The notes: generated by a model not told the origin, from the letters alone. A DNA stretch of 64,000 nt from a virus (IMGVR_UViG_3300028886_000084:7715-71714); one strand, 5' to 3'. Positions 1 to 33,903 are shown, numbered from the stretch's first letter. Program-made: numbers and translations.

Positions 1-260
1 TAGGTTATCTTCCAGGGGGTGTCGCCGTTGAGCGGTACGCCTTTCAGGTCATCGTCGGTGATCGTTAGAGGGCTTGAACAATCATTACGGAAATACGGCA
101 CCTTGACGATCTCATCGCCTTCTCTCTTCATCTTCTCTGCCGTTATGCTATCCTCGAAGACCGCGTACGGTTTCAGTCTCGGCGGGGATTTCTCTCCCGT
201 AGAGGCATCCATCATGCCGCCCTCATCGGACCAATACATCAATACATATACTGTTCTCAT
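1..260 (-). CDS. hypothetical protein, 3'-partial (MRTVYVLMYWSDEGG...)
   Basis: Manual translation from ATG at 260, preceded by GAGGTGAAAGA SD/connector; open to the window edge; not in the ORF track. Confidence 0.7.
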   Translation of the reverse strand, partial: MRTVYVLMYWSDEGGMMDASTGEKSPPRLKPYAVFEDSITAEKMKREGDEIVKVPYFRNDCSSPLTITDDDLKGVPLNGDTPWKIT

Positions 261-264
261 TCTT

Positions 265-447
265 TCACCTCTCATATCTTGAGCAGGGCATCTTTCCTTC
301 TCTGACCGAGCAGTCGATGCTTTTGATTATGCACATCCTGGTGCCGTCCTTTTTCAGTTTGGAGAAACTGCATTTGCTGCAGTCGGCAAAGGTCTTCTCG
401 GTGGAAGGGTCGTACTCCTGTCCGAGGATCGGTGTCTGATGGATCAC
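265..447 (-). CDS. small Cys-rich hypothetical protein
   Basis: GTG start overlapping the upstream TGA (GTGA); CxxC motifs. Confidence 0.6.
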   Translation of the reverse strand: MIHQTPILGQEYDPSTEKTFADCSKCSFSKLKKDGTRMCIIKSIDCSVREGKMPCSRYER

Positions 448-725
448 TCCAGCACCTCCCAGTCCTCGCTCTGCAGGTCGTACTGCGACGCCAACCATCC
501 GATCAGTCTCTTGCCGTCATTCGTCACCATGTCGATGTGCCCCAGGATCTCCACTTCGCCTCTGAGCTTCTCGCTGTCGGTAAGAGGGTCGTGACATTCC
601 TTCCACATGCTGGCGGGGATGACCCTGCTGGGCACATAGTACAGGTAGGCGTTCTTGCCGTTCCACCTCATGTTACGCACCCTTTTGCCGTTCATCAATG
701 CTTCCAATGCATCTCCGAAATTCAT
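444..725 (-). CDS. tad2: DUF2829 / Thoeris anti-defence 2 (Tad2)-like protein
   Basis: MNFGDALEALMNGKRV..WNGKNAYLYYVP..HIDMVT..GWLASQYDLQSEDWEV matches the DUF2829 consensus as recalled; ATGA overlap at 722-725. Confidence 0.8.
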   Translation of the reverse strand: MNFGDALEALMNGKRVRNMRWNGKNAYLYYVPSRVIPASMWKECHDPLTDSEKLRGEVEILGHIDMVTNDGKRLIGWLASQYDLQSEDWEVLE

Positions 726-1168
726 ATCGATTCCTCCAATACACAACTGGCCCTCAGTATGAGCCTGTCATCATCCGTCCTTTTAGCGGACATCACCCAC
801 ATCTCATCCGTATCCCCGGATCTGAGATCGAGACGGAATACGGAGAGTCTGCCCCATGTCGACATGTACTGCAGTGTATCATCAAGATATAACCCTTGAT
901 AGACACTGCCGTCCTCGTTGGACACGAAGAGCATATCGAAACCTTCCTTCTGTGTCAGGTCATCCTTGTCCTTGTATCCGTCGAGCAGATCGGCAAGATC
1001 TGCCTTGTATTGTCCTCTCAGATCGCTGAGCACCGGATCGATGCCGTATTCCTTCTTCACTTCAAGATCGGACGGCGTGTATATGATGTCGATATTCTTC
1101 TTCTCCGCGTAGTTCAGCAGGACCCTTTCGTATAACGATAGCCTTCTTTCCTCTTTCATTTCATTCAT
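722..1168 (-). CDS. hypothetical protein
   Basis: 148-aa ORF in the coupled array; GGAG SD favours an ATG at 1159. Confidence 0.7.
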   Translation of the reverse strand: MNEMKEERRLSLYERVLLNYAEKKNIDIIYTPSDLEVKKEYGIDPVLSDLRGQYKADLADLLDGYKDKDDLTQKEGFDMLFVSNEDGSVYQGLYLDDTLQYMSTWGRLSVFRLDLRSGDTDEMWVMSAKRTDDDRLILRASCVLEESI

Positions 1169-1352
1169 CTCCTTTGATGGTAAGTCCCATCATCTTGCCG
1201 CACCTTGCGCAGTGATACTCCCATGTCCAGGTCCTTGACCTGTCGGCGGGAGCACTCTGCGGGTACGACACCCATTCTCCGCATCCGCAGTTCGGGCATG
1301 TGAAGTGTCCCATGCCGTCGTGCGGGCAGTATCCTTCTCCTTTGTCGTTCAT
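1161..1352 (-). CDS. small zinc-ribbon protein
   Basis: CPNCGC and CARCG pairs; ATG overlaps upstream stop. Confidence 0.7.
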   Translation of the reverse strand: MNDKGEGYCPHDGMGHFTCPNCGCGEWVSYPQSAPADRSRTWTWEYHCARCGKMMGLTIKGDE

Positions 1353-1624
1353 TCCTTCACCTCTTCATACGTTTCATTGAACACCGTCTCATTACATGGA
1401 TAACAGTCGTGCGAACCTTTGATTATATAATCCCCTTTGTGGAATTGAACGTCGCCCTGTAATGTCTTGATATAAACCTTATCAATCATATACCCCTCTT
1501 TGTAATTGAAACCGCATTTCGACACACACTGTCTGCCTGTGAACTTCTGTATCTCTTCCCAATTGTCACCTGTGAACTGCACGGCTTCGACCACTATGGG
1601 CTTCTTTCTGTATTTGCCTATCAT
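1349..1624 (-). CDS. conserved phage protein (YRKKPxVxEAVQ...GDYIIKG...YPC family)
   Basis: KYRKKPIVVEAVQFTG, IKTLQG, GDYIIKG, YPCNETVFNETYE motifs typical of a widespread phage family. Confidence 0.75.
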   Translation of the reverse strand: MIGKYRKKPIVVEAVQFTGDNWEEIQKFTGRQCVSKCGFNYKEGYMIDKVYIKTLQGDVQFHKGDYIIKGSHDCYPCNETVFNETYEEVKE

Positions 1625-1794
1625 TCCTTCGCCCCCTTGTTCCATAACTCTATTGCTTCTTTTTCAGTATCAGCGTGAGGCCCCTGTGCCTGACAACGGC
1701 AGCATTCGACGATCCACGGTCTGTTGTAATGTCCGATGTGCCAGGTCATCGCTTGTTTACATTCGCAGAACGGACACGATTTCAGTTCGGTCAT
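1621..1794 (-). CDS. Lar-like (restriction alleviation) zinc-finger protein
   Basis: Manual translation MTELKSCPFCECK...ECCRC...EAIELWNKGAKE; below the ORF-track length cutoff. Confidence 0.75.
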   Translation of the reverse strand: MTELKSCPFCECKQAMTWHIGHYNRPWIVECCRCQAQGPHADTEKEAIELWNKGAKE

Positions 1795-2012
1795 TCTCCA
1801 CCCCTCGGGTGTATATTACAGGTAGTGATTGGCATACCGTTAAGGTATCTCCTATTCCATATCTCCACTACTTCTTCCTTCGACCTCCCCATCAACGGGT
1901 CTATTGCAATCCTACAATGATTGCACACAATATACCACCAATCGGGATTGGATTTGTAATGTTTCAGTTCAACATCCATTCCGCAAAACGGACAGTCTTT
2001 GAGTTCGGTCAT
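1791..2012 (-). CDS. Lar-like zinc-finger protein
   Basis: MTELKDCPFCG...CNHC...EIWNRR. Confidence 0.8.
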   Translation of the reverse strand: MTELKDCPFCGMDVELKHYKSNPDWWYIVCNHCRIAIDPLMGRSKEEVVEIWNRRYLNGMPITTCNIHPRGGE

Positions 2013-2016
2013 TCCT

Positions 2017-2193
2017 TCACCTCACCAATGCAGAAATTAATTTTACGCATGAGTATACGAAATATACCCCTATTAACGGCCAACCTATGAATGTAACATA
2101 AAAAATGACTGCTGCGTCTAATGCTCTGAACATCTTATTCGGCTTCTTCACATCACCGTAGTATTCGTTTAAGAGTTCATCCGCCGAGGTCAT
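2017..2193 (-). CDS. small membrane protein
   Basis: ATG at 2193 in connector; hydrophobic stretch AAVIFYVTFIGWPLIGVYFVYSCV. Confidence 0.65.
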   Translation of the reverse strand: MTSADELLNEYYGDVKKPNKMFRALDAAVIFYVTFIGWPLIGVYFVYSCVKLISALVR

Positions 2194-2360
2194 TCCTTCA
2201 CTCTCCTGTTCCATTTCTCTATTGCCTCTTCTTCCCTCATTCTGTCTGTACCCATCCCACAGCAGGTGCACATAATATAACGGGTGCGGATGTCACTCCC
2301 CGCATACTTGTATATCTTCGCCTTGCCACCACAGAACGGGCATGGTTTCAGTTCAGTCAT
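2190..2360 (-). CDS. Lar-like zinc-finger protein
   Basis: MTELKPCPFCGG...CTCC...EKWNRRVKE. Confidence 0.8.
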   Translation of the reverse strand: MTELKPCPFCGGKAKIYKYAGSDIRTRYIMCTCCGMGTDRMREEEAIEKWNRRVKE

Positions 2361-2650
2361 TCCTTCGCCTCCAGTCTCTTTATCCTTTGTTTTCTTATCA
2401 GATTCCTGATACGATGGTCGAGAGCCCATACTTCCTTGAGGTCATCGTCATCCTTGATCATCTTGTACAGGTCCTCTTCCAGCACACCCCACATCTTCTC
2501 CGCGACCAATTCGGGCTCGTCGGGCCATATCTCGAGATAGTAGGTATGTTTACAGAACGGACATTCTTTTCCCGCAGTCCTTGAAGGTGTATGGCGCGGG
2601 ATTCCCGAATCCTCTGCGGGCAGTCCTAGAAATTCATTCTTGTCGGTCAT
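2357..2650 (-). CDS. hypothetical protein with partial Lar-like CPFC motif
   Basis: KECPFCKH; ATG at 2650 in connector. Confidence 0.65.
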   Translation of the reverse strand: MTDKNEFLGLPAEDSGIPRHTPSRTAGKECPFCKHTYYLEIWPDEPELVAEKMWGVLEEDLYKMIKDDDDLKEVWALDHRIRNLIRKQRIKRLEAKE

Positions 2651-2838
2651 TCCTTCACCTCCTTCGGTCTTATCGCGTAGCTCATGGATGTTATTGCCAC
2701 GATCAGTTGTGCAGAACAATGCTTGCAAACATTCAATTCGAACTTCTCTATGTTCCAGAACGGGTCTGCATTGAATGTCACTTTAGCTGTCCCGTCCTCA
2801 TCTTCAATTTGTTTCTGACAGATCGCACACTGAGTCAT
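2647..2838 (-). CDS. small zinc-finger protein
   Basis: CAIC/CKHC pairs; ends EVKE. Confidence 0.7.
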   Translation of the reverse strand: MTQCAICQKQIEDEDGTAKVTFNADPFWNIEKFELNVCKHCSAQLIVAITSMSYAIRPKEVKE

Positions 2839-3038
2839 TCCTTCAGCCTCCCGTCGTATGATCCGTCGTTGACGATGCCGATGGCATTGTTGATGTATAT
2901 CGAACATTTCCTGCAATAGTGCAACGTGGTGATCATCTGACCGAATGTTCCCATATCGGACTCCACGGTCACCTCGACCATCTCTTTCTTCTTGTCGAAC
3001 TGCTCGTGACACCTGTCGCATTCATATTTTATGGTCAT
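2835..3038 (-). CDS. small zinc-finger protein
   Basis: CDRC/CRKC pairs; ATG at 3038. Confidence 0.7.
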   Translation of the reverse strand: MTIKYECDRCHEQFDKKKEMVEVTVESDMGTFGQMITTLHYCRKCSIYINNAIGIVNDGSYDGRLKE

Positions 3039-3175
3039 TCCTTTTCCTCCTCTTTCTTCTTTCTGCACCTTATACAGAGTTCATCATCCCAATATTCTCT
3101 CATCTCCCCGCATTCCTTGCACTTGGGTGCGGCGTTGTAGAGCCCTTCGATGAATGGTTTGAACCCTTCGCTCAT
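3035..3175 (-). CDS. small zinc-finger protein (46 aa)
   Basis: Manual translation MSEGFKPFIEGLYNAAPKCKECGE...LCIRCRKKKEEEKE; both ends coupled by ATGA overlaps. Confidence 0.7.
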   Translation of the reverse strand: MSEGFKPFIEGLYNAAPKCKECGEMREYWDDELCIRCRKKKEEEKE

Positions 3176-3504
3176 TTCTTCACTCTCCCGTTCCACATCA
3201 GCCACGCCTCGTCAGGGCTGTAATACCATCTGGTACCGGCATAACATGAGCTGCATGCTATGCGGTATCTGTCCCCGCAGAAGTCCCTCTTATGCGGATC
3301 GGTCTCCAGCTTCGGGGATCCGCCGCAGAACGGGCAGGGCAAAAAGTCAATTTGACTTTCATTGACTTTTCCTGTCTTTTCCCTGCCTGCCACATTTTTC
3401 ACTATCACCTTGGCTTTCTCATCCCCGTCAGGGATCAAAGATAGGAGAGATAGTAACTCCCTCCCTGTGATCGTGTACATCTTGTCCATCTCGAAATCGG
3501 TCAT
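3172..3504 (-). CDS. hypothetical N-domain fused to a Lar-like zinc finger
   Basis: C-terminal LPCPFCGG...CSSC...MWNGRVKK. Confidence 0.75.
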   Translation of the reverse strand: MTDFEMDKMYTITGRELLSLLSLIPDGDEKAKVIVKNVAGREKTGKVNESQIDFLPCPFCGGSPKLETDPHKRDFCGDRYRIACSSCYAGTRWYYSPDEAWLMWNGRVKK

Positions 3505-3707
3505 CTTACCACCCTGAATATCCTTTCTTCGCTGATTCCTTTCTTCAATCCTTCCAACAGGAACGACTTGTTCTTGTATATCTCACTCCACAGTTCATCA
3601 TCATCAAGATTAGCACCGTAGGGCATACTCGCAATCAATGTCTCTATCTGTTTTACAATCTTATCGATCGCTCTTTCTTCTGTTATTCCTTCACTCTCCT
3701 GTTCCAT
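3501..3707 (-). CDS. hypothetical protein (expected coupled ATG at 3686 reads ATA)
   Basis: 68-aa ORF; connector reads GAATAAC instead of GAATGAC. Confidence 0.55.
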   Translation of the reverse strand: MEQESEGITEERAIDKIVKQIETLIASMPYGANLDDDELWSEIYKNKSFLLEGLKKGISEERIFRVVR

Positions 3708-3868
3708 TCTTTCATCACAGTGCTTTTACCATATCCCCCCCACACAAACTTTTCAAAGTTCATATGACATTTGTTACAGTATATCACATAGGTCTCATCA
3801 CGTCCATCCGTCTTATCACGCAATTCTACATCACCGCCACAGAACGGACATGGTTTCAGTTCGGTCAT
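3683..3868 (-). CDS. Lar-like zinc-finger protein
   Basis: MTELKPCPFCGG...CNKC...EWNRRVKE. Confidence 0.8.
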   Translation of the reverse strand: MTELKPCPFCGGDVELRDKTDGRDETYVIYCNKCHMNFEKFVWGGYGKSTVMKEWNRRVKE

Positions 3869-4050
3869 TCCTTCACCCCCCAATACGGTCTGCAGACTTC
3901 GAAGAGGTAATCTATGCATCTCCTATCCAAATATCTCCAACGACCTTCGTTGACGATGTTCGGGCATCTTACAGCATCTGCGATGCTCTGGTATGTCCTG
4001 TCCTTGGAATGGACGTACTCCTTGAACCTCAGTTTGTTGATCCTGTTCAT
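3865..4050 (-). CDS. hypothetical protein
   Basis: Coupled ORF ending GVKE. Confidence 0.65.
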   Translation of the reverse strand: MNRINKLRFKEYVHSKDRTYQSIADAVRCPNIVNEGRWRYLDRRCIDYLFEVCRPYWGVKE

Positions 4051-4289
4051 TCCTTCTCCTCCCTGAATCTCTCATCCCACCCCAGGATCCATTTTGCCAT
4101 CTGGACTGCACGTTCCCACTCAACATCATCGTATACGGAGAAGTCGGGAGTAAATCCCTTCTGTTCAGCGTGTATCTCATCCGTACCGATGAATACGCCG
4201 AACACATACTTGCTGTCGGGATGTGTCCCCGTTGTTCCCCTTATGCTCATCTGAGTGTGCTCTGTCAGATCGAATACTGCGATGGTCAT
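4047..4289 (-). CDS. hypothetical protein
   Basis: Coupled ORF ending EEKE. Confidence 0.65.
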   Translation of the reverse strand: MTIAVFDLTEHTQMSIRGTTGTHPDSKYVFGVFIGTDEIHAEQKGFTPDFSVYDDVEWERAVQMAKWILGWDERFREEKE

Positions 4290-4447
4290 TCCTTCACCTC
4301 GTATACATCCAATACCTCCGGCATGGGGTCATGCAGATCACAGAGTTCATCCCAGACGATGTCCGCCATGCCTTCCATGTATTTTCTGGCATCCTCAACG
4401 GTCTCGAAACGATCCGTATCTATTGCCATAATACATCTGCATCTCAT
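4286..4447 (-). CDS. hypothetical protein
   Basis: ATG at 4447 in connector; ends EVKE. Confidence 0.6.
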   Translation of the reverse strand: MRCRCIMAIDTDRFETVEDARKYMEGMADIVWDELCDLHDPMPEVLDVYEVKE

Positions 4448-4629
4448 TCTTTCACCTTCTCTACCTTCTTTCCGCACGAGGGGCAGTAGTTCAACGGCAT
4501 ACAGTCGCCGTCCGGCCACACGATATACAGCTTATCGTCGATGATCGTGATACCATCTCTGATGTCATTCATCATCACTGCATCGCCCATGGCGTCGCAG
4601 CAGATGTTGATCTTCCACTCATCGGTCAT
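4444..4629 (-). CDS. small Cys-rich protein (CC...YCPSCG)
   Basis: ICCDAM and LNYCPSCGKK; ends KVKE. Confidence 0.65.
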   Translation of the reverse strand: MTDEWKINICCDAMGDAVMMNDIRDGITIIDDKLYIVWPDGDCMPLNYCPSCGKKVEKVKE

Positions 4630-4874
4630 TCTTTCACCCTCCTGTACGGTACCCTCTTACACGCTTTGATGTATTCATCACGGTGCATCTTCAACCATTC
4701 TTCCAACAATCTCAGTTCGAGTACGTCCTTCATCGGGCCAGCATATCTTGTGGCGTGACATAATGCTACAGCAATATACAGCTCCTTTGCCGTCTCATAC
4801 TCGTGAATGATGTTGTCTCTGTTGTTCTGTGCCATGTCATATGCGCACACCCTATGAAGGTTGAGTCTGTTCAT
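4626..4874 (-). CDS. hypothetical protein
   Basis: ATG at 4874; ends RVKE. Confidence 0.65.
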   Translation of the reverse strand: MNRLNLHRVCAYDMAQNNRDNIIHEYETAKELYIAVALCHATRYAGPMKDVLELRLLEEWLKMHRDEYIKACKRVPYRRVKE

Positions 4875-5224
4875 TCCTCCGCCCTCCTGTTCCACAGTGC
4901 TATCGCTTCTTCTTTGGACATAGCATCGAACATATGATCCACCCATACGTTGCAGTCCTTACAGGTGATACTGACCTCGCTCTTTCCCGGGTCGTTCTCT
5001 ATCAGATGCACATCTGTCGAACCGCAGAACGGACACGGTCTGAGTATAGAGCTGGCCTCTACCTCTTTTGAATTGACCTCGTTCCACAGCCTTATCGCTT
5101 TGTCTTTCTTCTCATCGACGGCGAATATGCGACAGTTCGCACACCCCACTTTCCACAGATCCTTCTCTCCGATGTAGACCTCAGCGATCCCTCCGCAGAC
5201 AGGACACGGTTTCAGTTCGGCCAT
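4871..5224 (-). CDS. tandem double Lar-like zinc-finger protein
   Basis: ELKPCPVCGG..CANC..LWN followed by LRPCPFCGS..CKDC..LWNRR. Confidence 0.8.
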   Translation of the reverse strand: MAELKPCPVCGGIAEVYIGEKDLWKVGCANCRIFAVDEKKDKAIRLWNEVNSKEVEASSILRPCPFCGSTDVHLIENDPGKSEVSITCKDCNVWVDHMFDAMSKEEAIALWNRRAEE

Positions 5225-5228
5225 CCTT

Positions 5229-5465
5229 TCACACCCCCATGACAGACAATGTCCACATCAAGACGACAAACGTCAATGCACAGAGTGTCATTATCACCAG
5301 TCCGACAAGCGCATACTCCTTCAGTTCAGGTGTATTGTAATCATTACCGAACCTCGTGTAATCCTTTATCAATTCGTGTGCGAGCACCCACAGGGATGCA
5401 ACGAATACCCATACCAACACCACCAGGCCTGCATTGAAGAATGGTTCGAGTGTCTCGGAGATCAT
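5229..5465 (-). CDS. small membrane protein, two TM helices
   Basis: Two long hydrophobic segments. Confidence 0.7.
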   Translation of the reverse strand: MISETLEPFFNAGLVVLVWVFVASLWVLAHELIKDYTRFGNDYNTPELKEYALVGLVIMTLCALTFVVLMWTLSVMGV

Positions 5466-5929
5466 TCCTTTGCCTCCTCCTTATATTTGAAATTCTTACA
5501 TTTGCAGGCGCAGCTCATCTCGTTGAATCTGTCTACTCTCATCACACATTCACTGATGCTGTAGTCCTTACAGTAGGTCTCGGGCAGCATGCTCACTGCG
5601 GCACCGTCCGCCAGATATCCTGTGAGTGCTTCACGATCATAATGCTCACAGAACCTGCATTCACGTCTGGGGGAGAATCTGTCGCACTTGTCCCACCTGC
5701 GGTATACTACATCCTTGTCCCCTGTGGCACCCACGATCAGATCCGGCGAGAGGGTACAGTAGAACATACCTATTCTGCCGCGGAAGTATGTCACCATCTT
5801 GCAGTGCTTGCATGAATGTTCGCCCGTGGTGGCCTCCATCTCAGCCACACGGTCCTTCAGCCATTGGACATCACGGTCATCCTGTTCTTGTATGGCCTTC
5901 TCGATCTTGCGTTTTCTGAATAGTCTCAT
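5462..5929 (-). CDS. Cys-rich hypothetical protein
   Basis: ATG at 5929; several CxxC; ends EAKE. Confidence 0.7.
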   Translation of the reverse strand: MRLFRKRKIEKAIQEQDDRDVQWLKDRVAEMEATTGEHSCKHCKMVTYFRGRIGMFYCTLSPDLIVGATGDKDVVYRRWDKCDRFSPRRECRFCEHYDREALTGYLADGAAVSMLPETYCKDYSISECVMRVDRFNEMSCACKCKNFKYKEEAKE

Positions 5930-6123
5930 TCTTCCACTCTCCCGTTCCACACCTTGAGGATGTCATCCAGATCCCCGAGACCATTATGGAATTTGAATAC
6001 CGTTCTGCAATTGTCACATCTCACACACGGATCGAACGGGTTGCACCTGTCATCCACATCATAATAATAGAGATGGAGATTGGTGTTCCCGCAGAACGGA
6101 CATGGTTTAAGTTCTGGATCCAT
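5926..6123 (-). CDS. Lar-like zinc-finger protein
   Basis: ELKPCPFCGN...CDNC...VWNGRVEE. Confidence 0.8.
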   Translation of the reverse strand: MDPELKPCPFCGNTNLHLYYYDVDDRCNPFDPCVRCDNCRTVFKFHNGLGDLDDILKVWNGRVEE

Positions 6124-6127
6124 TCTT

Positions 6128-6505
6128 TCACTCTCCTCTTGACAGCGTGTTCTCCCCGAACGGGAAGTTGCCGAGACAGGTCACCTTCTCAAGCGGCAGA
6201 TCGATGTAGAGGAAGTGTATCTCCCACCACTCCGAACCATCGTATTCGTTACGGAACATGATGAAGGGCGTACCTGTCTTGTTGTACCCCCTCATGCGAA
6301 GTCCTTCGTGGATCATGGTGCCTCCGAAGCCATCATCATACTCCGTGTCCCTGGCAAGCTCCTCGAAGTTCTCCTTGGTGATCTTGCACCTCTCCGGATC
6401 CTTCCCGCCCCATGGGTCGAGCTCGATCCATATCATCTTCACATCGTCCCATGTGAGGCCATTGGCCTCGAGCTTGGAGATCGTCTCATCCCAAAGATTG
6501 GTCAT
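6128..6505 (-). CDS. conserved phage hypothetical protein (NLWDET...YDDGFGG...EYDGSEWW)
   Basis: Motif pattern seen in many phage hypothetical proteins. Confidence 0.7.
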   Translation of the reverse strand: MTNLWDETISKLEANGLTWDDVKMIWIELDPWGGKDPERCKITKENFEELARDTEYDDGFGGTMIHEGLRMRGYNKTGTPFIMFRNEYDGSEWWEIHFLYIDLPLEKVTCLGNFPFGENTLSRGE

Positions 6506-6894
6506 TCTTTCACCCCCTTCACTACGATCTGCATGTCCGCATAGGGGCTGAGCCTATCCATCCACTCTTTGAATTCGAACTCGTCGGATTCATCGTAATC
6601 CTCGAGGACATCTACCATGTGGACTCTTTCCGTTGACACTGTCAATTCAACACTGTAGTAGTCGGTATAGAATCTGTATTCGAGGCATATCAACCTGCAA
6701 TTGTCCCTATCGATGGCGACCGGGTATAGGAACCAAGCTAATTGGCGTGAATCGTCGACATCCTCGTGAACGAAATATCTGTTGAGATATGTTTCTGCAC
6801 CTTCAAGGGACATACATTTCTTCTCGTGTTCAAGACATACGCTCTCTTTGTCGAATGTCTTTCCACAACTGTCGCACTTGTATACGTGTTTCAT
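6502..6894 (-). CDS. C2H2-like zinc-finger hypothetical protein
   Basis: YKCDSCGKTF...CLEHE..C; ends GVKE. Confidence 0.7.
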   Translation of the reverse strand: MKHVYKCDSCGKTFDKESVCLEHEKKCMSLEGAETYLNRYFVHEDVDDSRQLAWFLYPVAIDRDNCRLICLEYRFYTDYYSVELTVSTERVHMVDVLEDYDESDEFEFKEWMDRLSPYADMQIVVKGVKE

Positions 6895-7286
6895 TCTTTC
6901 ACCCCTTGGAAATCGAACTTCGGTATCCTGTTGTGTTCTCTGAGTTCTTCCTCGAACTTCTGCTTCCCTGTGCCGTTCGGCATGATAAGGATATCCAATA
7001 TCCCTCTGACATATCCCTTCCTGTATCTCTCCAGCACGTGCTCCTCTATCTTTGCAAATATCCTTTCCCGTGCCTTAGTATATTCTTCGCGATTGTCATC
7101 CAGCCACTGTTTCAGTATGGGCCTCGCGACTCTTCCGGGGTAGCGTACGGCATCGCGAATGCAGATGTATTCATACATCGTGCGGATCGCTTCATACTGC
7201 ATTTCGAGATCATCGTCGTTCCTTGCAGGCGTGTGTGCCGATGCCCTGTGATTGTACTTCTGTATGATCTTCAGCAGCCTGCTCAT
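6891..7286 (-). CDS. hypothetical protein
   Basis: ATG at 7286; ends GVKE. Confidence 0.65.
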   Translation of the reverse strand: MSRLLKIIQKYNHRASAHTPARNDDDLEMQYEAIRTMYEYICIRDAVRYPGRVARPILKQWLDDNREEYTKARERIFAKIEEHVLERYRKGYVRGILDILIMPNGTGKQKFEEELREHNRIPKFDFQGVKE

Positions 7287-7846
7287 TCCTCTCCCTCCTC
7301 GATCTTGCTGTATATCATTCTTTTCGATGTCACACCGCCGGTCTTGGGGTGTCTGCGCAGATAGTTCAGTACCCAATCGAACGTTTCCTGGTCGGGTGCC
7401 ACGCATTTGATTGCGATCATTGAACTGCCAAGCAGCGGTGTTGTTGCCTCGGGCAGTAATCTCCAATCGATGTTCTTCTCTTCCAACGCCGTTGTCACAT
7501 CATCGACATCGCCAAGTGAGCCCTGTACGAAGAAGATGAGCCACTTGTCATCCTCTTCATAATCTGGATCGTCATGTGCCTTTATGTCCTCCTGAACATA
7601 ATCCGGCACTTTCTCGAATGCAGTGTACTCCACCTCGTATTCCTCATCCCCGCCGTCATAGACAAGTGAGAAGTCGCCTTCATGAGAGCAGTGCATTCCC
7701 GGCAGCAGACACTCATAATGTCTGCGGAAGAAGCTGTCGATCTCCCTTCTGTCACGATCGACCTGCCACGGCTCACCGTAATGCCTGCTGATCATTATCG
7801 CTTTCTTGCACATGTTGCATCTCAGATACATCCTTGCATTCGCCAT
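7283..7846 (-). CDS. hypothetical protein
   Basis: 187-aa ORF in the array. Confidence 0.7.
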   Translation of the reverse strand: MANARMYLRCNMCKKAIMISRHYGEPWQVDRDRREIDSFFRRHYECLLPGMHCSHEGDFSLVYDGGDEEYEVEYTAFEKVPDYVQEDIKAHDDPDYEEDDKWLIFFVQGSLGDVDDVTTALEEKNIDWRLLPEATTPLLGSSMIAIKCVAPDQETFDWVLNYLRRHPKTGGVTSKRMIYSKIEEGEE

Positions 7847-8089
7847 TCAATCATCCTCTGCCAATCTGTCGAGTGTACCTTTGTATCTCACCATGAGCTC
7901 TTTGATCTTCTCTTCAAGTTCGGGCGATATCACATAGGGTTCAGAACCGATGGCTTTCGCATCGGGGATCATCTTCGATAATGACGGATCCTCTACCGTC
8001 TTGTCCGATTCGGAACCTGCTGTGATGGAGCCGGATACCTTGTCTCCGAGTTTCTCCATCAATACCCTGTGGAACTCCTCGTCGTTCAT
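7847..8089 (-). CDS. hypothetical protein
   Basis: ATG at 8089 in connector. Confidence 0.65.
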   Translation of the reverse strand: MNDEEFHRVLMEKLGDKVSGSITAGSESDKTVEDPSLSKMIPDAKAIGSEPYVISPELEEKIKELMVRYKGTLDRLAEDD

Positions 8090-8223
8090 TCTTTCACCCA
8101 CTTTATCTTACATCTGTACGGGATGCGAACATCCTCATCCTCATCTGCACAACCCATGTTATCCAAGAACCTGTAATAGTCCTCATCATTCGGGAACGTG
8201 ATCTTCAGTGTGACCTCTTTCAT
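8086..8223 (-). CDS. small hypothetical protein (45 aa)
   Basis: Manual translation MKEVTLKITFPNDEDYYRFLDNMGCADEDEDVRIPYRCKIKWVKE; coupled at both ends. Confidence 0.7.
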   Translation of the reverse strand: MKEVTLKITFPNDEDYYRFLDNMGCADEDEDVRIPYRCKIKWVKE

Positions 8224-8387
8224 TCTCCTCCCTCCAGCCATGCGTGCAGTTCATCCATGCACTCTGTACAGAGACGGTAATGGCGCGGTGCCATGCCTTC
8301 GTACATGGTGAAGACATCCCTGCGCCTGTCGGCTCCGTTCTGCTTCTTCCCGCAGTGGGGGCAGTACCACTCATATGTCGCGTTCAT
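8220..8387 (-). CDS. small zinc-finger protein
   Basis: YCPHCG...LCTEC. Confidence 0.7.
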   Translation of the reverse strand: MNATYEWYCPHCGKKQNGADRRRDVFTMYEGMAPRHYRLCTECMDELHAWLEGGE

Positions 8388-8746
8388 TTCTTCACCTTCC
8401 TCTTCTTTTTCTTGTTGGCCTTCGCCATATTGACCACATTGCAATCGTCCTTCAGATCCATGAGGATGAGCGTCTTCTTGAAACTGAATGAAGTGGCGTC
8501 GGTCCAGTCTGCGACCGGCTCCTGTGTGGCCTTGTCCATCATCAGATACGATCTCTCGCCGGTGATCTTGTTCTCGGCCAGCACGACCATGTACTTGCCC
8601 TGCAGGGTGAACCCGTCAGTGTTGTATTCATCGAGCTCTCTTTCGTAGATCTGGGTCATATCATTCGTCCACAGTCTCCACTGTGCGTTCTCCGCCACCA
8701 GTGTGCCGTATCCTTTGTCATCATCATCGTCGTCGAAGAATCCCAT
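8384..8746 (-). CDS. hypothetical protein
   Basis: ATG at 8746 (MGFFDDDDDD); basic tail. Confidence 0.7.
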   Translation of the reverse strand: MGFFDDDDDDKGYGTLVAENAQWRLWTNDMTQIYERELDEYNTDGFTLQGKYMVVLAENKITGERSYLMMDKATQEPVADWTDATSFSFKKTLILMDLKDDCNVVNMAKANKKKKRKVKK

Positions 8747-8750
8747 TGTA

Positions 8751-9224
8751 TCACCCGCAGTACCATGTGTGCACTGAGCCACCCTTGATGTAGGATATCA
8801 CGGTGACATCCGATTTTTGGAAGTATTTCACGTTCCCCAGCACCCATGTGACGTTGTCGACCGACTTGGATGACGATGATGCGGTGTAATACTTCAGAAC
8901 GACCGATTCCTTTTCCATGCAGACAGTGTATTTGGCGAAGAGATATTTGCTCGGCAAATAACTGCCTGTGAGGGGATTGTACGAGTATCCTTCGGTCTTG
9001 TAGTAGCTTTCCGGGGTGCCTACCTCGTACACTGTGCCTTTGATGGTCACCTTGCCATGGTTCTCCGTTGCCGCGTTCAGTCTTCCCGAGAATGTGGATT
9101 CGGCATCATCCATGTTGATGAGTGCGACAATCACCACACCGCACAGCATCGCTGCGATGCACACCGCGGCAACGACAGGGAACACACAATCCCAGACCTC
9201 CGGGTCAGTCAACATCCTCATCAC
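8751..9224 (-). CDS. membrane-anchored protein
   Basis: N-terminal hydrophobic helix. Confidence 0.7.
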   Translation of the reverse strand: MMRMLTDPEVWDCVFPVVAAVCIAAMLCGVVIVALINMDDAESTFSGRLNAATENHGKVTIKGTVYEVGTPESYYKTEGYSYNPLTGSYLPSKYLFAKYTVCMEKESVVLKYYTASSSSKSVDNVTWVLGNVKYFQKSDVTVISYIKGGSVHTWYCG

Positions 9225-9483
9225 TCCTTGTCTCGTCCAGATGTTTCAAACTCTCGTTCACCATCTTGTTGATCTCGTCAAAGCTCATGCCAGCCTCGCA
9301 GCCTTTAAGAAAGAGCATGTCCTCCAAGCTGGACAGACCGTGAGGGAAGCAATCCCTCCCGGCTCTCATCAGCTCTTCCGTGAACTCACATGCTGTACAC
9401 TGCTGAAATCTCCATCCGGCGATGCAGGATATGCATTCTGCCCTAGGCAGATTCAGCTCCCCGAAATCTGTATTGAATCTCAT
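9205..9483 (-). CDS. Cys-rich hypothetical protein
   Basis: CISC/CTAC; coupled to the upstream gene. Confidence 0.65.
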   Translation of the reverse strand: MRFNTDFGELNLPRAECISCIAGWRFQQCTACEFTEELMRAGRDCFPHGLSSLEDMLFLKGCEAGMSFDEINKMVNESLKHLDETRSDEDVD

Positions 9484-9920
9484 TTTTCCTCCTCCAGGAT
9501 CTTGGTACTGTGCATCTCTTCTCCGTTGCTGTCCATCACCATCGGCACGGTCTTGACCTTGCAGATGTATCCTTTTTTTGCAAGTAGACAGCGTGCACGT
9601 CCCTCGGTCTCCTCCGAGACCACCAAAGTGTCCCTCTCGTCCATGACCGGTAAGTCGCTGACGTCATATATCGTAGAGTACATCACGGGGCCGAATTCGG
9701 GCCTTATGTCCGAACGCTCAACATACCTCGCCACATCGTCCAAACGTGCCCTGTAGGGCCTTACAGGCACGCTGCGTGAGCTCTGAGCAAGTTCATCAGA
9801 TGTCACCCCGATCACAAGTGCTGCGTTCTTGAACGATGCGATGGTCATCGCAGCGTCCAGAAGCTTCGCATGGCCTTTGTGGAACACGTTGAAGGTGCCT
9901 CCGACCACCACTTGACTCAT
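9480..9920 (-). CDS. coaD: archaeal-type phosphopantetheine adenylyltransferase (HIGH-family nucleotidyltransferase)
   Basis: VVGGTFNVFHKGH, IGVTSDE, VRPYRAR, LVVSEET and MHSTKI match the archaeal/eukaryotic PPAT pattern. Confidence 0.8.
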   Translation of the reverse strand: MSQVVVGGTFNVFHKGHAKLLDAAMTIASFKNAALVIGVTSDELAQSSRSVPVRPYRARLDDVARYVERSDIRPEFGPVMYSTIYDVSDLPVMDERDTLVVSEETEGRARCLLAKKGYICKVKTVPMVMDSNGEEMHSTKILEEEK

Positions 9921-10144
9921 ATTTTCCCCTCCGTATATCTCAGAAGTGCGGTCTCACGGCACTCAAAACCCAGGATTTCGCTTCTTTTGACCAATTTTGC
10001 GGTGGAATTGTCGAATCTTGAGTCGTTGATCTGGATGAAATCCCCTTCATCGTGGATGTCGAGGGAGTTCATGATCATGTTGAACGTATTTTCGGTGACC
10101 TCACAGCAGAGATCGCCGGCCCTGAGGTGCCAAAGTACGTGCAT
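9917..10144 (-). CDS. hypothetical protein
   Basis: ATG at 10144 overlaps upstream TGA. Confidence 0.6.
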   Translation of the reverse strand: MHVLWHLRAGDLCCEVTENTFNMIMNSLDIHDEGDFIQINDSRFDNSTAKLVKRSEILGFECRETALLRYTEGKI

Positions 10145-10674
10145 CAGCTCTTCTCCCATCTGAGTTCCTTGACACATTCGCGGATCGAAAGGGCATAATT
10201 CACTATTCCGGCCTTTTCAAGGTCGTTCGCATACCCTTCAAGCCTCGTCAGAGCGTCTGCGGGGGCATTTTTGGTGCCTGTTTCGAACACGTCGCCGTGT
10301 TTCCAGTACTTTTTGAGTGTTGCAACGGCGGCATCGTGCATGAAACCGGTGATTCCGTAGGTGTCGGCGAGGAAACTGGCCTCGTTGATGATATTTTCGG
10401 TCAAAATGACCCTGTTTTTGATCAGATTCTGCATCAATTTGGCCCAATGGACCATGTAATCGAGCCAAGCCTTCGAATATTCGTCATCTTGGTTGTTCTT
10501 TACGACCTCTTCCCAGTCATTTTGCAGATCTTCTCTTATTTCCAGGGGTTCAAGCAGGTCGATGTACCCAGAAATGCGTTTTTCGAGGTCGGAATATCTG
10601 TCTTCTGCTCTGTGGTACGCTTTTTTCAGTGATTCTATCTCTTTTTCAGTATTCGGCGTAATATTTTTGCTCAT
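10144..10674 (-). CDS. conserved phage hypothetical protein (WAKLM...ADTYGITGFM...YWKHG); first gene of the early array
   Basis: ATG at 10674 downstream of a TATA box; motif seen in phage hypotheticals. Confidence 0.75.
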   Translation of the reverse strand: MSKNITPNTEKEIESLKKAYHRAEDRYSDLEKRISGYIDLLEPLEIREDLQNDWEEVVKNNQDDEYSKAWLDYMVHWAKLMQNLIKNRVILTENIINEASFLADTYGITGFMHDAAVATLKKYWKHGDVFETGTKNAPADALTRLEGYANDLEKAGIVNYALSIRECVKELRWEKS

Positions 10675-10695
10675 TTTTTCACCGAAAAAGAGATA

Positions 10696-10725
10696 GTAGT
10701 ACAAACTATTTAAACTTTGTACTAC
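10696..10725 (-). promoter_or_regulatory. archaeal TATA-box promoter flanked by a 10-bp inverted repeat (candidate operator)
   Basis: GTAGTACAAA-ctatttaaac-TTTGTACTAC; the spacer reads GTTTAAATAG on the minus strand. Confidence 0.75.
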
Positions 10726-10736
10726 AAATGTTCATT

Positions 10737-11513
10737 TCAGAGACCAAGGATGTCATGTATCAGGTTTCTGTACCATCCGATCCCGTCATTGATCGCCAGC
10801 ACCGTGTTCGAAATGCTGCCTGGCCTGTATATGTCCGGCATTTCGCCATGATGACGTATCGATTCCGACGGAAGCATGCACATGTCTAACGTGGTCTCAC
10901 ACAAAAGCCATTTTTCCTCATACATGACCCCTACGGCAACATGTCCGGTGTAGCTGAACAATGCCGCGTCATATCCCATTGCCAGATATATCGACATCAA
11001 TAGTACGGATGTGTCTTCGCAATCCCCTTTTTGAAGAAACAATGTTTCCATCGGCCTGGCAGTGAAGTTGCCGCCATACAGTTCATCATCATATCCATAT
11101 TCCACGGATGTTTGTACGAAATTCAATGCCGCTGTGATCCTTGACAATTCACAATAGCCTTCGGTCACTTCGAGGATGTGTTCCGTCACCATCTTCACGT
11201 ATTTATTGTCAGGATCCACGAGATGCAGCCCCGGGGGATCGAACCATGTGGACAATCTCATCGATCCATCAGACATCGATGCCTTGTATTCATCATACGT
11301 GATACCGAGGTTGATACATTCCTTAACATATGCATCTTGTGCATCATCGTAATGTTCCCAATGTATCGGCGTGGGGTTCGGCACATACGGTGTGACATGT
11401 TCCATCGCGCCGTCGTTGGATATGGACGCAAATATCATCCCCACCCCCATGGATATGGGCGTAAAGAATATGACGGCGAAACAAATGATCAATATCAGTT
11501 TGCGATTAGTCAT
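10737..11513 (-). CDS. membrane-anchored transglutaminase-like cysteine protease
   Basis: N-terminal TM helix; NFVQTSVEY..D, PMETL..KGDCEDTS, GHVAVGV, CETT (Cys-His-acid triad). Confidence 0.8.
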   Translation of the reverse strand: MTNRKLILIICFAVIFFTPISMGVGMIFASISNDGAMEHVTPYVPNPTPIHWEHYDDAQDAYVKECINLGITYDEYKASMSDGSMRLSTWFDPPGLHLVDPDNKYVKMVTEHILEVTEGYCELSRITAALNFVQTSVEYGYDDELYGGNFTARPMETLFLQKGDCEDTSVLLMSIYLAMGYDAALFSYTGHVAVGVMYEEKWLLCETTLDMCMLPSESIRHHGEMPDIYRPGSISNTVLAINDGIGWYRNLIHDILGL

Positions 11514-31344: not shown

Positions 31345-31863
31345 TCACTCCGTGAAGAACTGATCCTGCTGGCCGTTCTCGTCGACGTGTGTCGAGTAAT
31401 CCTCGACGATGTCCTTGGTGACCGGCTGGATGGTGTCGGGGTTGATCACAGGGTAGAGTCTGACATCGGACACGCCCTTGGCGGCCATGTCCTCTTCCCA
31501 TCTCTTCTTGTCCTGGAACGAAGGCTCCAGTGTGATCGTTGCGAGGAACACGCATCCCGCCATCTCGTCCGCCTGCAGAACGGTCTTGTATCCACTGCAT
31601 GCATATCCGAGTGCGTTCAGCCACTTCAGTCCGAAGAAATTGGTCGATCCGTCGTTCTTGGTCAGTCTCTGGAAGATCTTGAATGACCCGCCTGTCTCGG
31701 ACAGACTCGTCATGTCGAAGACGTACTTCTTCGTCTCGGGGTCATATTCTGCGTTGTCGATGTAGATGTACTGCTCGCCTGCTTCAACTGTCTTGAACTG
31801 CGGTCTGTAATCATCTTCGTTCTTGTTGCTCCATTCCCATGTTCTTGGTTTCACTTTATTCAC
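31345..31863 (-). CDS. putative ssDNA-binding protein (DUF669-like OB fold)
   Basis: Adjacent to YqaJ/ERF; size and acidic aromatic C-terminus. Confidence 0.55.
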   Translation of the reverse strand: MNKVKPRTWEWSNKNEDDYRPQFKTVEAGEQYIYIDNAEYDPETKKYVFDMTSLSETGGSFKIFQRLTKNDGSTNFFGLKWLNALGYACSGYKTVLQADEMAGCVFLATITLEPSFQDKKRWEEDMAAKGVSDVRLYPVINPDTIQPVTKDIVEDYSTHVDENGQQDQFFTE

Positions 31864-32953
31864 CTTCTTGGTTTTCTTCTTTAACAGGTTTCAATGAAAA
31901 TGTTTGTATCACTTTTGTGACCGTGTATTTTGCAGGATCGATACCGTCCTTCTCCAGGAGTTTCTTGTCGATCGATGTCCTCTTGGATTCGGTGATCGTT
32001 GCCTCGAACCTGCCGGAGGTGGTCCCCATGTTGTTACGTTTGTTCGTGACCATGAAGTCCTTGATCCTGTTCCTCAGCAGTTCCCTCTCATCCTGCAGCT
32101 CCTTCAGCGCAGCTTCCTTCTCTCCAAGCTCCTGTTCAAGCTCTTCCAGACGGTCGATGTCTGCCTGCACCTGCGGGTCATCCGACGTGATGTTCAGCAG
32201 GTGGTTCCACATGTCCAGATCACCGGTATTGGTCGGGTCGAAATCCGGGGTCTTTCCTCCGACGACGAACTCCTTATACCACTCGATGGCCTTGTCCAGC
32301 ATGTCATGCACCTTGGCATCGTCGATGGGCATCTCGAAGAGGAACACGTTCTTGTCCGAACCTTCCCATGATGACGGGTCCTTGCGGGTGTCATCGTCCA
32401 CCAGACAGACTGCGACGTATGCCTTGTCCTTAGGGGTCGGGAGGAAGTGGTTGTACAGTTCCACCTGCACCCTGTAGTAGTCGGGGACGCCGTCCGCCCA
32501 TGATGCATAGTTGGATGTGGTCTTGATCTCAAGGATATATCCATCCTTCAAGTCGATGCTGGCATGTTCGTCGTTGAAGACCATCCCGTCCATCCTTCCG
32601 GCGAACCACGTGTCATCGAAATCGGACTTCCACTGATCGTGATCGCCCTCCTGCTCTCCGAACAGGACCTTGGCGGGGATGAACAGCCCGTATTCCGGAT
32701 ATCTCTCTCCGAGATATTCGATGATGGGCGTTTCGAGCGTCTTTCCGATCTCGATGGATTGTTTTCCATCCAGATCTTCCTTGCAGATGCCCATCAGGTT
32801 GCATGCCTGCTGGAAGGGGGTGTTGAACGGGGACATGTTGAATATCCCCGCCAATGTGGACCCGGACATCTTCTTGCCGAACTTCCCATCGGTCTCGATG
32901 TGCTGTCCGACGACGGAAAAGGCGACCTGGGGCTCCTTGTACTTCCTGTTCAT
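31856..32953 (-). CDS. YqaJ/lambda-exonuclease-family viral recombinase
   Basis: SGSTLAGIFNMSPF, GKTLE, AGRMDG, LEIKTT, YYRVQVELY. Confidence 0.85.
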   Translation of the reverse strand: MNRKYKEPQVAFSVVGQHIETDGKFGKKMSGSTLAGIFNMSPFNTPFQQACNLMGICKEDLDGKQSIEIGKTLETPIIEYLGERYPEYGLFIPAKVLFGEQEGDHDQWKSDFDDTWFAGRMDGMVFNDEHASIDLKDGYILEIKTTSNYASWADGVPDYYRVQVELYNHFLPTPKDKAYVAVCLVDDDTRKDPSSWEGSDKNVFLFEMPIDDAKVHDMLDKAIEWYKEFVVGGKTPDFDPTNTGDLDMWNHLLNITSDDPQVQADIDRLEELEQELGEKEAALKELQDERELLRNRIKDFMVTNKRNNMGTTSGRFEATITESKRTSIDKKLLEKDGIDPAKYTVTKVIQTFSLKPVKEENQEGE

Positions 32954-33903
32954 TCCTTGACCTCGCGGTACTCGGTGAGGAACTTGATGATGTCCTTGTT
33001 GGACCCGATGTTCTTGTAGGCCTCTTTGACCTGGGCGTATTTCTCATCGGAGATCTTACCCTCACGGTTCGCCATCGACCATTTCTGGATCGAGCTGAAG
33101 AGAGGTTTCTTCTGGACCTCGGAGATCTTGGCACCGTACTCAGTGTTCATGCCCGGTGCGATCTTGCCGTCATCTGCTGCAGGTGCAGCTTCTGCGGGTT
33201 TCTCAGCGGGCACTTCCTTCTTGACCTTGGGTGCTGCAGGCTTCTTGGAGGCAGGCGGTGCTGCAACGGCCTCTTTGACGGTCTCTGCGGCCTCCTTTAC
33301 CTCTTCCGCGGTGGCCTCTGCCTCTGTCTTCACGGGCTCCTCTGCCTTCTTGGGCTTGGGTGCCGGCTTGGGTTTGACGGCGACCGCGGCGATCTTGGTC
33401 TTGATCTCCACGTTCTCCTCTTCTCCCTTGGGGATGTATGCACCGGTGGTGTCGTTCGTTCCGGCATCGGGATCGATCCCCTCTCCGATCTTGAAGTCTG
33501 CCAGAAGCCAGAGTTTCTGTGCATCGGTGGATGCTTTCTTGAGGGACTTGTCCCTCTGATCCATGCCCTCCCCGTAGTAGCGGTTGACCTCGGTCATGTA
33601 GCCGGTGTCGATATCCACATACCTCACGTGGAAGGATGCGACCCAGTGCTCCTCTGCTCTCTGTCCGAAAGGATCCATGCGCTTCGGCTCATCGAAACCG
33701 CACTCGAGCTCCAGGCCCACCTTGGGCAGAAGGGGTGCGAAATTACGGATGATCTTCTCACTCGTGATGTAGTCGACGCGCTTGCCGCCGAGCAGCATGA
33801 AACCATCTTTCTTCCAATCCTGCTGGAGAACAAGTTCTCTGAGTTTTGACTTCTTCTTGTATAACGCGGATCTCATCTTTACTTCTTCTTTATCGAATTC
33901 CAT
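32950..33903 (-). CDS. ERF-family single-strand annealing protein
   Basis: GEGMDQRDKSLKKASTDAQK...GIDPD; long Pro/Ala/Lys linker. Confidence 0.75.
   Translation of the reverse strand: MEFDKEEVKMRSALYKKKSKLRELVLQQDWKKDGFMLLGGKRVDYITSEKIIRNFAPLLPKVGLELECGFDEPKRMDPFGQRAEEHWVASFHVRYVDIDTGYMTEVNRYYGEGMDQRDKSLKKASTDAQKLWLLADFKIGEGIDPDAGTNDTTGAYIPKGEEENVEIKTKIAAVAVKPKPAPKPKKAEEPVKTEAEATAEEVKEAAETVKEAVAAPPASKKPAAPKVKKEVPAEKPAEAAPAADDGKIAPGMNTEYGAKISEVQKKPLFSSIQKWSMANREGKISDEKYAQVKEAYKNIGSNKDIIKFLTEYREVKE

Follow-up and report, generated by a model that had tools for sequence, protein, structure and literature searches.

Exchange at repeated expression signals among small non-essential genes has been described for T4-type phages, where the repeats are promoter-early stem-loops (PeSLs) (Arbiol et al. 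2010, PMC2839356; Comeau et al. 2014, PMC4122927). The subject of the present work is a 64,000-nucleotide stretch of viral DNA, referred to below as the window, that comprises bases 7715-71714 of the linear 71.7-kb IMG/VR virus record IMGVR_UViG_3300028886_000084 (approximately 75% complete), and in particular an array of small genes at its left end that are chained to one another by a recurring connector, GTGAARGAATG. PeSL-mediated modular shuffling is the closest published analogue of what is reported here, namely that related viruses have gained, lost and reordered whole genes at the junctions of the array. In both cases short repeated expression signals lie between small non-essential genes of a hyperplastic region, the end points of insertions, deletions and replacements between relatives are found in the repeat, and the repeat ends with the Shine-Dalgarno sequence and start of the next gene. 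A PeSL, however, is an intergenic promoter-plus-terminator with a stem-loop that provides each gene with its own transcript, whereas the connector, which has no promoter, fold or intergenic DNA, is a translation signal, 12-16 nt long, that occupies the final codons of the preceding gene, within what appears to be a single operon. Since 30 of the 45 junctions overlap by 4 nt (ATGA) there is no spacer to accommodate a promoter or terminator of the PeSL type. Mini-circles have been shown for PeSLs while none was seen in our data, which are assembled contigs only, and the host of the array is probably archaeal.

Other described systems share some of these features. In lambdoid phages, for which modular theory and relaxed recombination of the Rad52-like type have been discussed, the homologies extend over hundreds of bp, and the longest identical stretch in them measures 11-298 bp (De Paepe et al. 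2014, PMC3945230). Short conserved boundary or linker sequences flank non-homologous segments there as well, and an Erf/Rad52-type annealing protein and an exonuclease are likewise present, but the shared runs of the array (6-14 nt) are far shorter than lambdoid tracts and recur approximately 20 times in one operon. Termination-reinitiation coupling through ATGA overlaps is known in archaea and bacteria for gene pairs, often encoding subunits of a complex (Huber et al. 2019, PMC6728339). The array has the same 4-nt overlap, with a Shine-Dalgarno sequence inside the upstream open reading frame (ORF), yet it strings together about 45 consecutive junctions of nearly fixed sequence that join unrelated accessory genes. 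Integron arrays, finally, are alike in having one upstream promoter (a candidate in our case) and a row of apparently promoterless, unrelated cassettes in the same orientation, variable in content and order. They use an IntI-type integrase, none of which was found in the 71.7-kb record, and folded attC sites with imperfect inverted repeats that the connectors do not have, the cassettes of the array being joined by stop/start overlap and not by recombination sites; with neither integrase nor structured sites, the label 'integron-like' that the original prediction gave to the array is not retained.

The connector and the array

Independent gene calls on identical metagenome contigs, mapped to the window, establish a chain of 46 minus-strand genes of 45-187 aa each that runs from 10704 down to window position -1910, i.e., 1.9 kb beyond the left window edge. 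Thirty-nine of these are in or touch the window, in agreement with the approximately 40 tiny genes of the original prediction, the full chain being longer; gene 39 straddles the left edge and genes 40-46 are located at -110 to -1910 (contig L167). The array proteins form 39 unrelated families, with blastp returning paralogues only for Lar (7 genes) and for one further pair, so that the common junction is not a by-product of gene duplication.

The 11-mer GTGAARGAATG has 13 exact matches where 0.11 are expected, all of them on the minus strand between 258 and 8097. Allowing one mismatch, the 12-mer GTGAARGAATGA is matched 26 times (1.01 expected), and 22 of these matches coincide with minus-strand junctions between 257 and 10682, close to the approximately 25 junctions that had been noticed initially. 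The junction consensus is GGAGGTGA-ARGA-ATGA, with 16 junctions no more than one mismatch away from GGTGAAGGAATGA. The array and its connectors are as follows.

1-10704, minus strand: window part of the array, genes 1-39 (gene calls and junction table)
8086-8097, minus strand: connector of genes 8/9, exact (GTGAAAGAATGA); in-register deletion of gene 8 in run X3, 8 nt shared
6891-6902, minus strand: connector of genes 11/12, exact; in-register 392-nt deletion of gene 11 in X3
6502-6513, minus strand: connector of genes 12/13, exact (motif search and junction table)
6120-6131, minus strand: connector of genes 13/14, exact for the 11-mer GTGAAAGAATG and with one mismatch to the 12-mer (ATGG for ATGA); the stop of the upstream gene is the TGA within GTGA
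4626-4637, minus strand: connector of genes 18/19, exact (motif search and junction table)
4444-4455, minus strand: connector of genes 19/20, exact (motif search and junction table)
4286-4297, minus strand: connector of genes 20/21, exact; joint at 4286 in X3
3865-3876, minus strand: connector of genes 22/23, exact; X3 joint 1342->3862
2647-2658, minus strand: connector of genes 28/29, exact to the full 16-mer consensus (motif search and junction table)
2190-2201, minus strand: connector of genes 30/31, exact (motif search)
2009-2020, minus strand: connector of genes 31/32, exact; the upstream gene stops at GTGA
1349-1360, minus strand: connector of genes 34/35, exact; end of two multi-gene deletions in X3
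257-268, minus strand: connector of genes 38/39, exact (motif search and junction table)
starts at 1621, 2357, 2835, 3172, 3683, 4047, 5926, 8384 and 10671, minus strand: nine more connectors with one mismatch, the first seven within the span of the Lar genes

In the connector at 3683 the ATGA is mutated to ATAA. At 5 junctions the upstream stop is the TGA of GGTGA, 4 nt before the ATG; to the genes ending at 265, 2017, 5229 and 6128, for which this earlier stop had been pointed out, the gene ending at 8751 is added. An xKE ending is found in 17 array proteins (11 VKE, 3 AKE, 2 EKE and 1 LKE), which bears out the observation that unrelated proteins end alike.

Judged by its layout the connector is first of all a translation signal. 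The 8-nt Shine-Dalgarno sequence GGAGGTGA, which we take to be complementary to the conserved 3' end of 16S rRNA, ends 4 nt before the ATG and is followed by a 4-nt purine spacer and then by ATGA, with high information content at positions -12 to -5. Both Shine-Dalgarno sequence and spacer sit in the last codons of the upstream gene, typically (G)-V-K-E, and the junction table confirms the combination of Shine-Dalgarno sequence, start codon and stops in two frames that had been described. The GGTGA-N4-ATG spacing is the same at the late genes, which use GGTGAT-type sites, and is kept at the gene 1 site (GGTGA-AAAA-ATGA) although there is no ORF upstream. No RNA structure is apparent, six connector regions folding no better than shuffled sequences (z from -0.38 to +1.26), and the motif, as written GTGAARGAATG, is purine-only apart from its T residues and contains no inverted repeat. 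This arrangement suggests that translation is coupled at the array junctions. The same 12-mer occurs sporadically at coupled junctions of unrelated phage contigs. A search for paired connectors returned 13 IMG/VR and 15 GTDB contigs; none of these encodes relatives of array proteins and several are simple tandem repeats, so that only a sporadic origin of the 12-mer elsewhere is shown.

As to conservation relative to other junctions of the genome, for which a comparison had been called for, the array is the more uniform: information at -12 to -1 amounts to approximately 7.9 bits in the array and 3.2 bits at the other genes, and at the spacer positions -4 to -1 to 2.4 and 0.6 bits, respectively. 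When the array is taken as a whole, adjacent connectors are significantly alike, an effect that stems only from its non-canonical ends; a runs test by hand on the AAAGA and AAGGA connector variants was not significant (p about 0.06).

Public gene calls start two genes (2190-2214 and 3172-3196) at an ATG or GTG within the KWN(R/G)R codons at the C-terminus of Lar, giving overlaps of 25 nt. The connector predicts in-frame starts 21 nt downstream of these calls, at 2193 and 3175.

Rearrangements among relatives

The phage collection contains no close relatives of the virus, and IMG/VR few. There was no match to near-identical array DNA in cultured or deposited phages, a scan of IMG/VR for a 26-mer (connector plus Lar start) returned none, scans with the Tad4-like protein and with a 917-aa protein revealed no relatives, and a scan with a single 14-mer gave only single, chance-level hits among the matches listed. 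Homologues of genes 10, 12 and 21 gave access to 16 contigs, which come from independent assemblies of rumen or gut samples, and four rumen runs were in addition compared to the array for breakpoints (listed joints and loose ends).

The 58 listed breakpoints of the four runs lie at a median of 7 nt from a gene boundary, compared to 67 nt at random, and 39 are within 15 nt of one, where 20,000 random trials give a mean of 7.5 and a maximum of 19. On the 16 contigs there are 57 unique ends of homology blocks, 38 of which fall between -8 and +14 nt of a start codon (4.7 expected, maximum 15), with adjacent blocks overlapping by 8-12 nt. Breakpoints of gain, loss and reordering in relatives thus concentrate at the junctions, as had been anticipated.

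In-register losses are observed in run X3. Gene 11 is missing through a 392-nt skip that extends exactly from junction to junction, gene 8 through a loss of 134 nt with 8 nt shared, and 12-13 genes between the connector at 1349 and those at 3865 and 4047, the joint 1342->3862 removing 12 genes between two exact connectors. It is unlikely that these reflect a collapse of the assembly on connector repeats because the shared runs are at most 13 nt long, shorter than the 31-letter words of the Logan run index, although the assembler's own word length may differ from 31.

The window order 6-7-8-9-10-11-12-13 is permuted without inversion in several independent assemblies, with relatives showing 7-12-11; 7-9-12-11; 12-11-(new 152 aa)-13; and 6-x-7-12-11-9'-10-13...21...18-19, and contigs L133 and L134 carry scrambled homologues of genes 27, 25, 10, 39 and 40. 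Three genes for which neighbours differ are listed here.

7283-7846, minus strand: gene 10, 187 aa; three different sets of neighbours in relatives
6502-6894, minus strand: gene 12, 130 aa; four different upstream and three different downstream neighbours in relatives
444-725, minus strand: gene 37, Tad2-like (PF11195); in the source sample (run X1) also found next to unlike DNA that begins exactly at 444 and 725

Three-way alignments of seven new junctions localize the switch. Each has the window context of the upstream gene until ATGA and that of the downstream gene from ATGA on, so that the tail bearing the Shine-Dalgarno sequence moves with the upstream gene. In this respect the original prediction of an independent plug-in element is not supported, the Shine-Dalgarno part being a coding tail that travels with its gene. 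No joint requiring a circular form was found among the joints listed; those that point backward (e.g., X1 6111->2647) are read as rearranged relatives and not as circles.

Two further observations were made on related contigs. A 46-aa gene at L174:1858-1998 consists of the 3' half of window gene 9 preceded by eight new N-terminal codons, an arrangement that, by its sequence, is an intragenic breakpoint that made a shorter gene. At L168:589-3428 an 844-aa DNA methylase with an intein and then a Tad2-like gene are located beside homologues of genes 39 and 12.

The virus, its host and its recombination genes

The virus is tailed and its sequence occurs in bovine rumen metagenomes. Among 50,697 phage records the best match of the terminase, at 44% identity, and the sole match of the portal, at 35% identity, are to one and the same virus.

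NC_134205.1: Caudoviricetes sp. vir335, host Methanomassiliicoccales; nearest database relative (terminase, portal)

Since the sole portal relative and the best terminase relative belong to a Methanomassiliicoccales virus, the host is probably a rumen archaeon of the Methanomassiliicoccales type, making the archaeal assignment of host and Shine-Dalgarno sequence that had been put forward a likely one. The GGTGAT-type sites of late genes, the TTTAAATA box, the archaeal PPAT cluster and the occurrence in rumen agree with an archaeal host and do not amount to proof. Like the window, vir335 has genes in the order helicase-Erf-RecE and runs of small, non-paralogous genes joined by near-identical junctions, but its junction reads GAGGAGGAATGAGRA-ATG, where the stop precedes the start by 5 nt, its G+C content is 58% as opposed to approximately 49%, and no array proteins are shared. 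Three such runs of 3-4 adjacent non-paralogous genes, with junctions such as GAGGAGGAATGAGGA-ATG, are located at 2488-4941, 64133-65704 and 75085-76259 of vir335 (L177/L178). Because vir335, too, has runs of near-identical junctions, but of another sequence, the habit itself may be common in such viruses even if the sequence is not.

Upstream of the array and on the same strand are genes for a VapE-like helicase, an SNF2 helicase, a 317-aa protein and a YqaJ/RecE-like exonuclease, followed by tail-type genes. The pair of interest for recombination is

32950-33903, minus strand: divergent ERF/Rad52-like single-strand annealing protein, 317 aa (PF04404 matches of its homologues and AlphaFold model)
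31856-32953, minus strand: YqaJ/RecE-like exonuclease (phrog_434, E 2e-35)

The exonuclease gene adjoins the ERF-like gene, to which it is coupled by ATGA, and its PF09588 score is just above the cut-off (22.5 vs 22 bits). The 317-aa protein itself has no Pfam match. PF04404 (ERF) is, however, matched by 40 of 60 homologues, with a best E-value of 3e-17, and an alignment-based AlphaFold model (pLDDT 83) matches RAD52 and Mgm101 at a probability of 1.0, the matches being limited to the N-terminal domain with a TM score of 0.24-0.28 by query length. A single-sequence fold was useless (pLDDT 43), and searching the Protein Data Bank with a sequence profile returned noise only. Together with the annotation of the same helicase, Erf and RecE trio in vir335, the matches of the homologues and the predicted model point to a divergent ERF/Rad52-like annealing protein, so that the presence of both YqaJ and ERF, as had been proposed, is upheld. 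Neither tyrosine nor serine recombinases (PF00589, PF00239) were matched in the whole 71.7-kb record, approximately 75% complete, and Pfam scans of the genes flanking the array revealed no recombinase.

The opposite arm of the genome encodes the terminase and the portal. The large terminase (52398-54239, plus strand) has intein/HINT-like matches past residue 420 that are under the Pfam cut-offs, and the alignment of the vir335 terminase to it spans residues 2-560. Two VapE-like helicase paralogues, 35874-37166 on the minus strand and 38782-40572 on the plus strand, diverge from a strand-switch gap at approximately 37.3-38.1 kb. Late and replication genes (11500-37300, minus strand, and 38000-64000, plus strand) use GGTGAT(A) plus 3-4 nt before the ATG, a site that often holds the upstream stop and is without the GGAGG of the array junctions.

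The remaining features concern the array itself.

10675-10736, minus strand: gap upstream of the array with a 10-bp perfect inverted repeat (sequence read; one-mismatch motif match at 10671-10682)
10144-10674, minus strand: gene 1, Tad4-like, Thoeris inhibitor family (PF25186, E 1.5e-16)
9480-9920, minus strand: gene 3, cytidylyltransferase/PPAT-like nucleotidyltransferase (PF01467)
1621-6123, minus strand: Lar span, seven genes with 8 domains (PF14354, blastp family, repeat families D1, D2 and D11)
5926-6123, 4871-5224, 3683-3868, 3172-3504, 2190-2360, 1791-2012 and 1621-1794, minus strand: Lar genes (PF14354)

The gap at 10675-10736 is the only sizeable one upstream of the array. Its inverted repeat, GTAGTACAAA / TTTGTACTAC (10696-10725, minus strand), brackets TTTAAATA approximately 33 nt upstream of gene 1 and is followed downstream by the ribosome-binding site of gene 1, which makes 10696-10725 a candidate for an archaeal promoter that serves the whole array under operator control. 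All gaps at array junctions are 5 nt or less up to a gap of 33 nt that precedes the last gene. Just after that gene come a G+C-rich hairpin, GGGAGG...CCTCCC, and then TTGTTTTT, at approximately 5745-5790 of contig L167 (minus strand, about -1925 to -1970 in window positions). The coding strand of the 12.7-kb array has 3 runs of five or more T and 17 of five or more A. The array would thus appear to be bounded by a single TATA-like promoter and by a terminator consisting of hairpin and oligo-T, and is best explained as one long operon of accessory, partly anti-defence genes. The earlier description of the genes as anti-host finds support in homology for only four families (Tad4, Tad2-like, Lar and nucleotidyltransferase), and the label 'early' is not retained. 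The PPAT-like atlas cluster of gene 3 is 85% Archaea, and no Rfam family was found in 1-11000.

Around the Lar genes longer stretches of DNA are shared, as had been reported; these repeats are 27-57 nt long, 60-96% identical, and by their sequence are a by-product of gene duplication. Lar-to-Lar joints (e.g., 3331->5202 and 5039->3340) were left out as evidence of connector exchange since they may be assembly effects of paralogous repeats of 30-57 nt. A relic connector within a tandem Lar-Lar gene was considered and found not convincing. Contigs of several independent assemblies (JGI, Logan, ENA) stop in the Lar-rich region 3300-3530, and in one ENA sample the left flank is an alternative one, where an isochorismatase-family gene and a Lar gene of 145 aa lie upstream of the gene at 2835-3038.

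Origin and meaning of the junctions

The reading that we favour, and regard as rather probable, is that the connector is the standard translation junction of one operon and that short-homology exchange at it shuffles whole genes. Each gene would be a cassette that begins with its ATG, closes with its purine tail and supplies a ribosome-binding site to any gene that comes next: the DNA of its last codons (GGAGGTGA plus ARGA) would serve as Shine-Dalgarno sequence and spacer, its stop would overlap the next start, and the TGA in the second frame (GGTGA) would also end upstream genes that arrive in another frame, two of the three frames being terminated. With ribosome-binding site and stops in two frames carried in the tail, each gene would hence be self-contained and any junction-to-junction exchange would be expression-neutral. 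As all junctions share the core RGAATGA(A), often within 12-14 nt, crossovers would be possible by short homology and harmless, and the lineage would thus gain, lose, duplicate and reorder whole genes there, with permutations reachable by unequal exchange to give a duplication and then by deletion. The joints could be made by annealing after resection, strand slippage or microhomology end-joining, in which the ERF and YqaJ proteins may take part. A further step, which we advance tentatively, would be that the uniform junction is kept as a recombination interface, with the ERF/Rad52-like protein and YqaJ annealing connectors after breaks or in replication, resulting in an integrase-free exchange of anti-defence cassettes and in connector 'dialects' of lineages or sub-arrays.

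Several observations weigh against shuffling by short homology. The crossovers share the core of 6-10 nt and at most 14 nt, and an identity of 6-14 nt is below the 23-27 bp reported as the efficient minimum for Red-beta (PMC3945230). Some exchanges have taken place at non-canonical junctions, including all three upstream contexts of gene 10, and approximately one-third of the block ends are intragenic, at Lar zinc-finger motifs or in truncated gene 9. In the central array, connectors resemble their neighbours no more closely than they resemble distant connectors, so that there is no sign of local homogenisation, and since the genome has only six other ATGA junctions to compare with, a uniformity beyond what coupling requires cannot be claimed with statistical confidence from the spacer positions alone. 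Moreover, purifying selection on random illegitimate recombination would also leave breakpoints at gene boundaries, and the junction therefore need not be a recombination substrate.

The last point leads to an alternative that is possible, if doubtful, in which the motif is a ribosome-binding site only and makes no joints. Convergent selection for a strong Shine-Dalgarno sequence, a purine spacer, harmless hydrophilic tails and ATGA would generate the junction, and the gene-precise mosaicism would represent the survivors of random illegitimate recombination. Gene-boundary mosaicism is general in phages (general reference PMC3233612), and the same layout is present at the intergenic gene 1 site and in unrelated phages; the crossover identity of 6-10 nt, under efficient annealing lengths (PMC3945230), the exchanges at non-canonical junctions and the lack of local homogenisation argue in the same direction. 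What such an account does not readily provide for are the in-register deletions between identical 13-nt connectors, or via an 8-nt shared core, and the many independent junction-exact events at 8-20% nucleotide divergence, same-orientation permutations among them. Dispensable tails would tolerate crossovers anywhere, yet it is in the longest shared run that the switches are located, and the junction 'dialect' differs between two Methanomassiliicoccales viruses, a poor fit to a single host optimum. Repeated exchange by short homology at the junctions, on the other hand, is fitted by the sequences in these respects, i.e., by the many junction-exact events at this level of divergence, by the connector-to-connector deletions and by the permutations in the same orientation, and the uniformity of the junction may be kept in part because shuffling is made safe by it.

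Two other explanations were considered. It is quite improbable that the GGAGG-containing junction is primarily a regulatory target on which a viral or host RNA-binding protein or endonuclease acts, shutting off the array genes as a class while the late GGTGAT genes escape. T4 RegB, which cuts GGAG in early Shine-Dalgarno sequences, offers an analogy, and the genome does contain two classes of ribosome-binding site (GGAGGTGA-ARGA in the array and GGTGAT in late genes), but no candidate regulator was identified and the junction-exact shuffling, though compatible, is left unexplained. Least likely of all is a site-specific, integron-like system with a dedicated recombinase that recognises the connector and excises or inserts cassettes, which has in its favour the array architecture only (one candidate promoter, promoterless cassettes, repeated junctions) and is contradicted by the lack of tyrosine or serine recombinases in the record, approximately 75% complete, by connectors that are degenerate, lie inside coding sequence and show neither inverted repeat nor fold, and by the absence of a circle-requiring contig joint among those listed.

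The array has practical consequences, in that the connector allows start-codon calls to be corrected, arrays of this kind are places where metagenome assemblies break, and the junction lends itself as a standard part to the construction of polycistrons. With many identical short repeats, many independent rearrangements of low divergence and a resident ERF/exonuclease pair, it is also a tractable test bed, and it bears on whether mosaic joints in phages arise by short homology or by random joining and selection. The idea of shuffling is extended to a probable methanogen virus with homologues of anti-defence genes of bacterial phages (Tad2, Tad4 and Lar), and the picture that emerges at the level of sequence is of a virus that keeps a large accessory gene set fluid without breaking its expression.

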